Positions 21,055 through 23,487 of a stretch of 64,000 nt of DNA are shown in pieces. Source of the DNA: an uncultured Pseudomonadota bacterium (lineage in GTDB: Bacteria > Pseudomonadota > Alphaproteobacteria > RF32 > CAG-239); NCBI GenBank assembly GCA_949286215.1, contig CASDYX010000004.1, forward strand, positions 20,001 through 84,000, in the 5' to 3' direction. How positions within the stretch are numbered: the first letter of the stretch is position 1; each line of letters opens with the position of its first letter. The translations under genes and the position numbers were made by a program. The notes under the pieces are model-generated. The model worked only from the letters and a program-made list of their open reading frames with translations, did not search any database and was not told the origin of the DNA.

Positions 21055-22362
21055 TTACGCAATATTTAAATATTTTGTAACAAAGTTTTCTTCGCCATAT
21101 TCTTTTATTAACTCTTCTACCAACAACACATTCTTTCTGCCCGAGTTATACAACTTCAAATATGGTCCTAATCCACTTAAATCGACATCCAAAATAACAG
21201 ATTCACCGGTTGCCGGACGAGAAAGTAAAATAGCATACGGGAAATCTCGATAACTTTTACCAAAAATAAAATCAATTTCTCGTTGCGTTAAATTCCAGTT
21301 AGCATAGTCTTCAGGCATTGCTTGCGGGTTACGGAAGAATATTACCGTTTGACATTGTCCACGAATAACCTCACCTACGCCCAATTTATCAATAATATTC
21401 GGCTGTTGGAACGCACACAAGTATGCTTGGCGCTTTTTACGTCCTTCTTGAAGACCAATAATAAAGTAATCTCTAAACATCGGGTGTTTTAACATCGGCG
21501 CCGTTTCATCAATCATAATTAGTGAAGGAACACCGGTATCACCTGTTTCTGACATAATACGATGCATAATATAGCTGATTACGGCCGGAGCTAAGGTTTC
21601 ATCTTCAAAAATATGTGTAAAGTCAAATGCCATAAAGCGCTTGCTGGCCAAATCCAAACTATCGTTTTCAGCATTAAAAATATTACCGTATTGGTCAGGA
21701 TTTATCCAACGATATAGTTCTCGACGCATATTTCCGGTCGGTGAAAAACAGCTTTTATAAAGATTTTTTAATATCCGCTCTTCAGGCTTTAAGTAATCGA
21801 ATGATGTCGTTACCGCACGTCCGATTTCTTTTTCTGACAAGGCATCATCAACCATTGTAATGGATTTTAGCCACCTTCTTAAAAAGGCTCTGTTGTTTGG
21901 CGTATTTTTACAGTCGAACGGATTTAGGGATACGTTCTTCTCATCTCCGTCAAAACCAACGTATGCTCCTTGTACTGCACGGGTAAAAATTTCAGCACCG
22001 CGGTGACGGTCAAAGAAGAACACCTTCAAATCATGGTGTCTCATGGCTTGTCCGGCCAAAAATGTCAGCAATGTGGTTTTACCTTGTCCGGTCGGACCAA
22101 TAATACAACAGTGCGCAACAGCAGAATCTTCTGTTGAAACGTGGAATTGGAAACGATAGGCAGAACCTGAGGTGGTTCTGAAAATTGAAATTGCTCCAGG
22201 ACCCCAGTCACTCTTTGGCAAACCTTCTGAGGGTTTATCAAACGAAATCGCTGCCGCAACTACTCTTGATAAATAACGATATGTTCTGGGATAAGCATCA
22301 TATGTCGGGAATTGGTTAAAAAATGCTGCTTGAGCAACCCAACCTTCTCTTACGGGGGTCAC
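21055..22362 (-). CDS. virB4: VirB4/TrbE/CagE ATPase, C-terminal NTPase half. It is in the same frame as 22381..23487 and separated from it by a single in-frame TGA.
   Basis: The Walker A motif is CCIIGPTGQGKTT, and the C-terminal half of the CagE/TrbE/VirB family is present. The track start is GTG at 22360-22362, with no Shine-Dalgarno sequence upstream. Confidence 0.85.
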   Translation of the reverse strand: MTPVREGWVAQAAFFNQFPTYDAYPRTYRYLSRVVAAAISFDKPSEGLPKSDWGPGAISIFRTTSGSAYRFQFHVSTEDSAVAHCCIIGPTGQGKTTLLTFLAGQAMRHHDLKVFFFDRHRGAEIFTRAVQGAYVGFDGDEKNVSLNPFDCKNTPNNRAFLRRWLKSITMVDDALSEKEIGRAVTTSFDYLKPEERILKNLYKSCFSPTGNMRRELYRWINPDQYGNIFNAENDSLDLASKRFMAFDFTHIFEDETLAPAVISYIMHRIMSETGDTGVPSLIMIDETAPMLKHPMFRDYFIIGLQEGRKKRQAYLCAFQQPNIIDKLGVGEVIRGQCQTVIFFRNPQAMPEDYANWNLTQREIDFIFGKSYRDFPYAILLSRPATGESVILDVDLSGLGPYLKLYNSGRKNVLLVEELIKEYGEENFVTKYLNIA

Positions 22363-22380
22363 ACTAAATAAACGACAAAT

Positions 22381-23487
22381 TCATTGAACTTCACTTTCGC
22401 CAAAGTTAATTTCTTCCATGCTATCACCGCGAATGATAATATCCATGGCATATTCGGTTAAAGACTGGTAGTCTGCATCACTATCTTCAATTGCGGACAA
22501 AGCCTCCGAATATTGATTAACAACATCCGGAGAAAAACTAGTAACGGTTGCCATTCTTTGTTGTTGCATAAGCAAAGCTCGTGCTTGCGGCTTAAACATC
22601 GGTTTTATGTTATGCAGGAGTGTTAGTTCACAATCGATAGCTAAAAGTGATGCTATCATACTCTCGTCCATATAATCTCCGGAGGTACGAATTCCCATAA
22701 CAATTTCGTAAATTTCTTTATCTCCAGAGAAAAATTTGATAATTCCGTTTTCACCCGTGAAATGTATATGGTCTGCCGTTAAAAGCTCATTTAGCTGATA
22801 ACCTGTTGCCCCTCTGACTTTGGGCAAAGGTTTAGAGACTGGGCTACATATTTTAGCAAAGACATATAAAGGACTATCTGTTGCAGCGCTGTCTTCCGTT
22901 TCAAACATAGGCTTGACACCATAGTCATTTAAGGTTGCCAAGAGAGATTGTGAGGCATAGTTTAAGTCTTTCAACGCATCAGGGCGGTCGACTACAGACA
23001 ATATAATATAGTGTTTATTACTATAAACCCTATCCAAATTATTGCGCCAAGTCATAGATATTTGCTCTAGCAGCTGGTTGCCAAAATCGCCCGTATCTTC
23101 TTCCATCGGAATTCGTTCACGCAATGTTAAAACGCGGCAAATTATTTGCATATCCGACATCGAATCTATCCATGATTTCCGGGCTTCCATCATGGCTATA
23201 TTTTTCTCTTCGGTCACAAAAGATAAATCCACCCCTTCGACACGGAAGACCCGCGCAAAAGCGCCGTTATAGCAACGAATGGTGATGCCGTCAGCCATGA
23301 GCTTATTAAAAGGCAAAAAGTCCACTACTCGGGATTCTTGCGGTTGAGGCAAAATTAACCGACCTAATTTGGTTGCCCATAATCCGGCAAAAGCCGCAGC
23401 AGAAACGAATCCTATTGTGGCAACAATTACTTCTATATTCGACAATCCTTGAACAAAGATTGTAAAAAAATCAAAATCAGGGCGCAA
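22381..23487 (-). CDS. virB4: VirB4/TrbE/CagE N-terminal half, ending at the in-frame TGA at 22381-22383
   Basis: This is the N-terminal domain of the CagE/TrbE/VirB family. Its start overlaps the virB3 end at 23477-23487. Combined length is 368 + 6 + 435 = 809 aa, the size of an intact VirB4. Confidence 0.8.
   Translation of the reverse strand: MRPDFDFFTIFVQGLSNIEVIVATIGFVSAAAFAGLWATKLGRLILPQPQESRVVDFLPFNKLMADGITIRCYNGAFARVFRVEGVDLSFVTEEKNIAMMEARKSWIDSMSDMQIICRVLTLRERIPMEEDTGDFGNQLLEQISMTWRNNLDRVYSNKHYIILSVVDRPDALKDLNYASQSLLATLNDYGVKPMFETEDSAATDSPLYVFAKICSPVSKPLPKVRGATGYQLNELLTADHIHFTGENGIIKFFSGDKEIYEIVMGIRTSGDYMDESMIASLLAIDCELTLLHNIKPMFKPQARALLMQQQRMATVTSFSPDVVNQYSEALSAIEDSDADYQSLTEYAMDIIIRGDSMEEINFGESEVQ

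Follow-up and report, generated by a model that had tools for sequence, protein, structure and literature searches.

The locus raises the question of whether a single stop codon inside an otherwise complete virB4 gene is a genuine nonsense mutation, an error in the consensus sequence, or a feature that the cell decodes or uses to divide the protein in two. In the window, by which we mean the whole stretch of 64,000 nucleotides that was analysed, the ORFs place virB4 on the minus strand (23487..21055), a strand that a preliminary description of this DNA had left unstated. The gene runs for 810 codons from a TTG start, the same start as in its homologs, to a TAA end, and a single in-frame TGA (22383..22381) occupies codon 369. 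The upstream ORF (23487..22384) has 368 codons, begins at the TTG and ends at this TGA. After the stop, the same frame continues with ATT TGT CGT TTA TTT AGT (ICRLFS) and reaches a GTG (22362..22360), which opens an ORF of 435 codons ending at the TAA at 21057..21055, so that translation across the stop reads ...GESEVQ*ICRLFSVTPVREGW.... Both nucleotide-binding motifs belong to the downstream ORF: Walker A, GPTGQGKT, at 22098..22075 (residues 464–471), and Walker B, SLIMIDE, at 21525..21505 (residues 655–661), with the TGA codon lying ~95 residues ahead of Walker A. The pieces of the gene, all on the minus strand, are as follows.

22384..23487, minus strand: virB4 codons 1–368, most of the N-terminal domain, recognised by PF03135, TIGR00929 and the alignment to TrwK
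22381..22383, minus strand: premature TGA, with T at window position 22383 (gene nt 1105) in place of the ancestral A of AGA (Arg)
22362..22360, minus strand: GTG at codon 376, the first canonical in-frame start past the TGA
21055..22380, minus strand: virB4 codons 370–810, covering the remaining ~50 residues of the N-terminal domain and the entire ATPase domain, then the TAA

Joined, the two ORFs amount to 810 codons, equal in length to the uninterrupted homologs, indicating that they are one gene with one stop and not two reading frames juxtaposed by chance. The preliminary description had read the locus in the same way, as a full-length virB4 with one in-frame TGA, formed by two ORFs in the same frame with the TGA and six codons (ICRLFS) between them, the 435-aa downstream ORF carrying Walker A; the minus-strand translation bears out each of these points. 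It had also stated that no Shine-Dalgarno sequence precedes the downstream GTG. Indeed, the 20 nt upstream of the GTG (GAATTTGTCGTTTATTTAGT) contain no Shine-Dalgarno-like purine run, unlike most genes of the operon, which are preceded by AGGAG or GGAGG.

Both halves are recognisable as parts of a VirB4 protein. The N-terminal ORF matches PF03135 (CagE_TrbE_VirB) over residues 223–360 (E=4e-9) and covers positions 3–122 of TIGR00929 (VirB4_CagE), and the C-terminal ORF covers positions 358–780 of the latter model (E=1.3e-86); each half falls under the full-length cut-off of TIGR00929, as expected of fragments. The reconstructed protein aligned to residues 160–739 of TrwK of R388 (PDB 7O41; E=1.6e-40). 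The PF03135 match and model similarity, the Walker A and B motifs and the surrounding type IV secretion system (T4SS) gene cluster place the gene in the VirB4/TrbE/CagE family, and what it lacks is the single uninterrupted frame of ~800 aa, which is broken by the TGA at codon 369. In the TrwK alignment, R369 corresponds approximately to residue 349, ~50 residues ahead of the boundary where the N-terminal domain meets the C-terminal one. The N-terminal domain of TrwK comprises residues 15–400, and in R388 VirB4 this domain binds VirB3 and mediates VirB4 dimerisation (PMC9259494). Judged by the alignment, the break falls within the folded N-terminal domain and not at a domain boundary. An AlphaFold2 model of the full-length protein, built from a shallow alignment, had a mean pLDDT of 39.9, too poor for fold analysis. 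Its low-confidence local secondary structure (helix 357–373, strand 378–381, R369 near the helix end) agrees with the TrwK alignment and may lend weak support to this placement of the stop.

The gene is part of a minus-strand operon that opens with two TrbC/VirB2 genes, followed by a 1145-aa ORF, a 96-aa VirB3-like ORF, virB4, and ORFs of 773, 261, 451 and 1537 aa. Further on lie two VirB8 genes, CagX/VirB9, a gene for a 1307-aa protein and TrbI/VirB10, and a VirB11-like (T2SSE) ATPase gene follows TrbI/VirB10 just outside the window.

27915-28253 and 27426-27875, minus strand: a tandem pair of TrbC/VirB2 pilin genes, with which the operon begins
23477..23767, minus strand: 96-aa VirB3-like ORF with a hydrophobic segment, overlapping the virB4 start by 11 nt
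1..20981, minus strand: downstream operon genes, all intact, including the 773-aa coiled-coil, 261-aa, 451-aa and 1537-aa ORFs
11125-11883 and 10079-10813, minus strand: two VirB8 genes
8411-10057, minus strand: CagX/VirB9 with a SPOR domain
4491-8414, minus strand: 1307-aa beta-flower/RHS-repeat protein
4552..1, minus strand: TrbI/VirB10 with a giant beta-flower repeat N-terminus, running off the left end of the window

The 96-aa ORF, identical in at least ten conspecific contigs, had no Pfam match, and its position and size point to a VirB3-like protein. Two neighbouring genes vary among strains: the 1145-aa ORF beside the pilins has a hypervariable patch between otherwise near-identical strains, and the coiled-coil ORF of 773 aa has 96-nt repeats and differs in length. 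A blastn search of plasmid DNA with virB4 returned no match, indicating that this is not a known plasmid T4SS. Among GTDB species representatives, the relatives are metagenome-assembled genomes named Candidatus Scatocola, Proteobacteria bacterium CAG:495, 'Azospirillum sp.' UMGS and similar, obtained from human, chicken, deer and mouse gut. The host is an uncultured gut alphaproteobacterium of the Ca. Scatocola / CAG-495-like group. A literature search on the T4SS of RF32 or gut Alphaproteobacteria found nothing.

The residue that the TGA replaces can be read from these relatives. We aligned the 120 best protein homologs (81–92% identity) with MAFFT and found all of them uninterrupted at ~810 aa, with Arg in the TGA column in 120 of 120. 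The surrounding stretch, ESEVQ-R-ICRLFSVTPVRE, is conserved, most of its positions being invariant in these homologs; within RICRLFS, five residues are invariant and two near-invariant. At the nucleotide level, Arg is encoded in all 81 genomic loci that span codon 369, as CGT (39 loci), AGA (24), CGC (11), CGA (5) or AGG (2), and the four nearest species (84–89% nt identity) all have AGA. No stop or frameshift in virB4 was found in 82 related loci, 80 of which are full length and two of which are cut by contig ends.

An evolved feature, be it an alternative genetic code, selenocysteine insertion, readthrough that is programmed or a VirB4 that is split by nature, might be suspected simply because an otherwise intact gene contains an in-frame TGA, but we consider it highly improbable, as the stop occurs in no relative and the aligned residue is Arg. 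The preliminary description had noted that widespread internal TGA codons would point to genetic code 4 or 25. However, at least seven other long genes in the window end in TGA, several of them in ATGA overlaps typical of coupled genes, and none of the other genes compared with the sister strain contains an internal stop. Code 4 (TGA=Trp) and code 25 (TGA=Gly) were therefore rejected, TGA being a normal stop here and the aligned residue an invariant Arg. A selenoprotein was rejected because all homologs have Arg, not Cys or Sec, at this position, with no SECIS-like structure and no tRNA-Sec in the window; the two tRNAs encoded in the window are ordinary Arg and Ser species, and no suppressor tRNA was found there either. 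Programmed readthrough is contradicted by the absence of the stop from all relatives and of a stimulatory structure: the fold of 101 nt around and downstream of the stop gave z=+0.71, no better than shuffled sequences, and an Rfam search returned nothing relevant. The suggestion of stop-codon readthrough or recoding in the preliminary description is thus not upheld, and neither is its suggestion of a functional split VirB4, given that none of the 82 related loci is split here, that the GTG lacks a Shine-Dalgarno sequence, that the break lies inside the N-terminal domain and that a product restarted from the GTG would miss the seven residues RICRLFS. An out-of-frame ATG overlapping the stop (caATGa) was considered as a coupling signal and discarded, since it opens an ORF of six codons only.

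The comparison within the species is more informative. By exact look-up, a conceptual protein with Arg369 and otherwise identical to the reconstructed VirB4 is on record (P0123, from ENA ERZ16268236 scaffold_16, 193.6 kb), and both truncated products are known from one contig only. The 22.4 kb around P0123 align to the window without gaps at 99.75% identity. Over the 2,433 nt of virB4, the near-identical strain differs from the window at one position, nt 1105, where the window has T and the strain has A; over 9,259 nt (window 14510..23768), this nonsense SNP is the only difference from ERZ16268236 scaffold_16. The other 55 differences over the 22.4 kb are mostly clustered in two variable patches, and isolated SNPs between the two near-identical strains number a few per 22 kb. 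The remaining T4SS genes that were compared with this strain are all intact. A look-up of the identical VirB3-like protein led to ten conspecific contigs from independent samples, and in the nine of these that span codon 369 (virB4 nt identity 96.1–99.96%) the codon is AGA without exception. The comparison of strains that the preliminary description had proposed thus shows the stop to be absent from nine of nine conspecific contigs as well as from the near-identical strain. A single transversion, A to T, thus turned AGA into TGA, and it is private to this strain or assembly.

The age of this change can be bounded by the substitutions around it. When changes were polarised with locus L003 as sister and three outgroups, the terminal branch leading to the window virB4 carried 54 synonymous and two nonsynonymous changes, S211A and R369*. 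Past the stop, the same branch carried 25 synonymous and no nonsynonymous changes, that is, no sign of decay. Since virB4 shows no other change relative to the near-identical strain, the stop must be later than essentially all measurable divergence, and the lack of decay is fully explained by this recency.

Two of the four possibilities raised in the preliminary description, a recent nonsense mutation and a sequencing error, are each compatible with a T that is private, an AGA everywhere else and a downstream sequence free of decay; readthrough and the split gene fall away, as set out above. We favor a very recent loss-of-function allele, AGA (Arg369) to TGA, either fixed in the strain or segregating in the sampled population, and assign it a probability of about 0.65. 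This reading draws on Arg in all homologs and loci, on AGA in the nearest species and in nine of nine conspecific contigs, on the absence of relaxed selection, on the intact state of the other T4SS genes and on TGA being a genuine stop. It also draws on mutational opportunity, as ~4.8% of random substitutions in virB4 would create a stop, and on the general quality of the sequence. Contigs assembled by Logan from run ERR10610604 agree with the window at 24,554 of 24,554 other positions. This indicates that the run holds the same strain, of which there are thus two assemblies, and that the consensus can in general be trusted. The species is also present in runs ERR10610621 and ERR10610644. Finally, substitution errors in a short-read consensus are, by our own estimate, rarer than strain SNPs at a few per 22 kb, and the strain SNP density, which we would expect to exceed the consensus error rate by a wide margin, favors a real allele. 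Against it stands the expectation that a nonsense allele under such strong constraint would be short-lived.

If the organism instead has AGA, the T would come from poorly supported reads and would be an error of base calling or consensus. We hold this to be a good deal less probable, although several observations speak for it: the T is a singleton, the near-identical strain and nine conspecific contigs all having A, only one contig is known to carry the truncated ORFs, and virB4 shows neither decay nor any other change. The Logan contig of ERR10610604 ends at window position 22398, 15 nt short of the SNP, and with Logan contigs of ~12 kb the chance of a break that near to a given site is ~0.26%, so that read support near the site is anomalous. 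Such a break can reflect very scarce local coverage, which would favor an error, since 31-mers that occur a single time are dropped by Logan, which works at k=31 and outputs contigs >150 bp (PMC12424806). At a clean SNP bubble the contig would stop 1 nt from the SNP, and the observed distance is 15 nt; a pure low-coverage or bubble model predicts no end at exactly this distance, which makes the break unspecific, and it is compatible with a mixed A/T population and with very low coverage alike. No ERR10610604 contig beyond the SNP was found by exact look-up of partial products from codons 370–379 or by look-ups of the 773-aa and 261-aa neighbours, and JGI metagenome contigs, scanned for the exact pattern around the stop site, gave no match. 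What counts against an error is the agreement of the window and the Logan contigs at 24,554 of 24,554 other positions, the expected rarity of substitution errors in a short-read consensus relative to strain SNPs (a few per 22 kb), and the nature of the change, which is a substitution and not a homopolymer indel.

If the recent nonsense allele is real, termination at the TGA would leave residues 1–368 only, a predicted 41-kDa piece of the N-terminal domain that lacks the ATPase domain, against 92 kDa for the full-length protein. VirB4, the ATPase that energises T4SSs and acts in their assembly, is indispensable for building and running them, and its loss would be predicted to render the system non-functional, a null phenotype. 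The 1.3 kb of mRNA left untranslated after the stop could in addition exert polarity and so reduce how strongly the downstream genes of the operon are expressed. A milder outcome would follow if the mutation were real and partly tolerated, with leaky UGA readthrough or reinitiation at the GTG giving partial function. UGA is generally the leakiest bacterial stop, and ribosomes can restart at nearby starts after nonsense codons, which lends such tolerance some general credence. From the local sequence, the GTG at codon 376 appears to be the only plausible reinitiation point; it is in frame, 18 nt (6 codons) past the stop, and the coding sequence downstream of it is intact. We nevertheless regard partial tolerance as improbable. 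The GTG has no Shine-Dalgarno sequence, the surrounding RNA shows no structure (z=+0.71) and no Rfam element, a restart product would lack RICRLFS with the break inside the N-terminal domain, and readthrough would usually place Trp at the invariant Arg. Moreover, the intact downstream sequence is accounted for by recency alone.

A second virB4 lesion was seen in a sister species. In the Ca. Scatocola faecipullorum group, a 1-nt deletion shortens an A7 tract (GAT GAA AAA AAC) of virB4 to A6. This A6 allele occurs in Logan contigs from seven runs (ERR4563604/5, ERR4560833, ERR4623356, ERR3857964, ERR2213680 and ERR7340721) and splits the gene into ORFs of 539 and 266 aa. Strains with the A6 allele are interspersed with intact strains, and compared with an intact reference they show 27 synonymous and no nonsynonymous codon changes. 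Phase variation, slippage rescue or a platform artefact could each account for the A6 allele. As an independent disruption of virB4, it suggests that such alleles occur in natural populations, and to that extent it favors a real allele in the window. We consider it rather unlikely that a segregating TGA and the A6 allele together reflect a recurrent, possibly selected or reversible T4SS switch-off in gut Alphaproteobacteria. If this were true, the benefit could be, for example, evasion of phages that target the pilus, or a saving on what the machine costs the cell.

Taken as assembled, the gene is a pseudogene, which predicts a dead T4SS, yet every relative, among them a strain with no other difference in virB4, has the gene intact. 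For annotation and comparative use, the stop should be treated as a strain-private lesion or an error, and neither as a feature of the species nor as evidence of recoding. It is an ordinary premature stop in a well-known family, and no new mechanism is required. Of wider interest than the stop codon is its setting: the T4SS is strongly conserved, encoded on the chromosome and unusual in architecture, and it is apparently a core trait in a large clade of uncultured gut Alphaproteobacteria.

The closest known counterparts of the interrupted protein are the T4SS ATPases of the VirB4/TrbE/CagE family, for example TrwK of R388 (PDB 7O41; Macé et al. 2022, PMC9259494), with which it shares the PF03135 match, TIGR00929 similarity in both halves and the Walker A and B motifs. 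The small VirB3-like gene that overlaps the start of the window virB4 is a further likeness to TrwK and the VirB4 family. The window virB4 differs from TrwK in that the TGA interrupts it where it aligns to approximately TrwK 349, inside the N-terminal domain. The systems differ as well: the R388 system is plasmid-borne, whereas the T4SS of the window is chromosomal, is found in at least 261 species-level genomes of gut Alphaproteobacteria and is accompanied by very large non-canonical components. For the lesion itself, a comparison is offered by virB4/dupA (jhp917/918) of Helicobacter pylori ICEHptfs4 and by other ICE genes with frameshift or nonsense alleles (Fischer et al. 2014, PMC4234485). 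In both cases, a T4SS ATPase is lost at the strain level by a small lesion and relatives remain intact. However, the H. pylori cases lie on mobile ICEs, in many instances consist of a deletion at a recombination motif and run through whole populations, whereas the window virB4 carries a single private SNP, with no sign of spread, in a vertically inherited and strongly constrained chromosomal system.

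The independent Logan assembly of ERR10610604, the run that holds the window's strain, matches the window at 100% identity across 24.5 kb, and its contig ERR10610604_1289 (L089) terminates at window 22398, exactly 15 nt short of the nonsense SNP in virB4. Within 60 nt on each side there is no further known conspecific variant. Read support at the site thus appears anomalous, through heterogeneity or low coverage.

A sister species, the Ca. Scatocola faecipullorum group, carries another virB4 disruption, independent of the window's TGA. A 1-nt deletion shortens A7 to A6 (GAT GAA AAA AAC) at codon ~516, breaking the gene into two ORFs of 539 aa and 266 aa. 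The loci compared were as follows.

L103:510-2941, disrupted A6 virB4, one example among the Logan contigs L100-L106
L006:4876-7308, intact virB4 reference
L001:2546-4978, intact virB4 reference

The A6 allele is present in Logan contigs of seven different runs (L100-L106), strains carrying it are intermixed with intact A7 strains, and its codon changes are all synonymous (27/27). Exact wild-type VirB4 would be produced from it by a -1 slip of tRNA-Lys or by RNA polymerase slippage. Candidate explanations of the allele are phase variation, rescue by slippage, and an artefact of the sequencing platform. The A7 tract is not kept clade-wide; the window carries GATGAGAAGAAC there.

Two other genes of the region vary between strains of the window's own species.

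23964-27401, minus strand, 1145-aa ORF, flanked by the pilin genes and the VirB3-like gene
about 27216-27329, minus strand, variable patch of the 1145-aa ORF (codons 25-62)
18660-20981, minus strand, 773-aa coiled-coil ORF
19812-20238, minus strand, 96-nt tandem repeats inside the coiled-coil ORF

Of the 56 differences from the 99.75%-identical strain, 37 fall in the 1145-aa ORF, which has no match in Pfam; 17 of these 37 are nonsynonymous and cluster in residues 25-62, a hypervariable or recombining patch. Another conspecific (L088) shows only about 84% identity across 2.2 kb of the ORF. The product may be a surface or pilus-associated protein subject to diversifying selection. Within the coiled-coil ORF, the tandem copies are 93-94% identical; the ORF measures 677, 692, 741, 773 or 788 aa across conspecific strains, and the copy number of the 96-nt repeats therefore varies.

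A type IVb-pilus-like cluster is transcribed divergently from the T4SS operon and shows no difference between the two near-identical strains. Pfam matches on gene calls of L108 identify a eukaryote-like signalling triad adjoining these secretion loci.

28554-40182, plus strand, type IVb-pilus-like cluster: 666-aa ORF, TcpQ-domain protein, secretin, PilO-like accessory protein, additional large ORFs, T2SSE-family ATPase (seen in L108)
41476-44361, plus strand, VWA-domain protein, PP2C phosphatase and Ser/Thr protein kinase, consecutive

Judged from the window and from 261 related genomes (L002-L081), this T4SS (window 1-28253, minus strand) is chromosomal and seems to belong to the core gene set of a large clade of uncultured gut Alphaproteobacteria. 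Between species with DNA identity of only about 77%, VirB4 protein identity is 81-92%. A full-text literature search found no paper on this clade's T4SS, and four of its large ORFs lack family matches. VirB2 and VirB8 are each duplicated, VirB9 bears a SPOR domain, and VirB10/TrbI carries a fused repeat region of >1,200 aa (beta-flower/RHS; 1574 aa in L107), a second beta-flower protein being encoded by a separate 1307-aa ORF.
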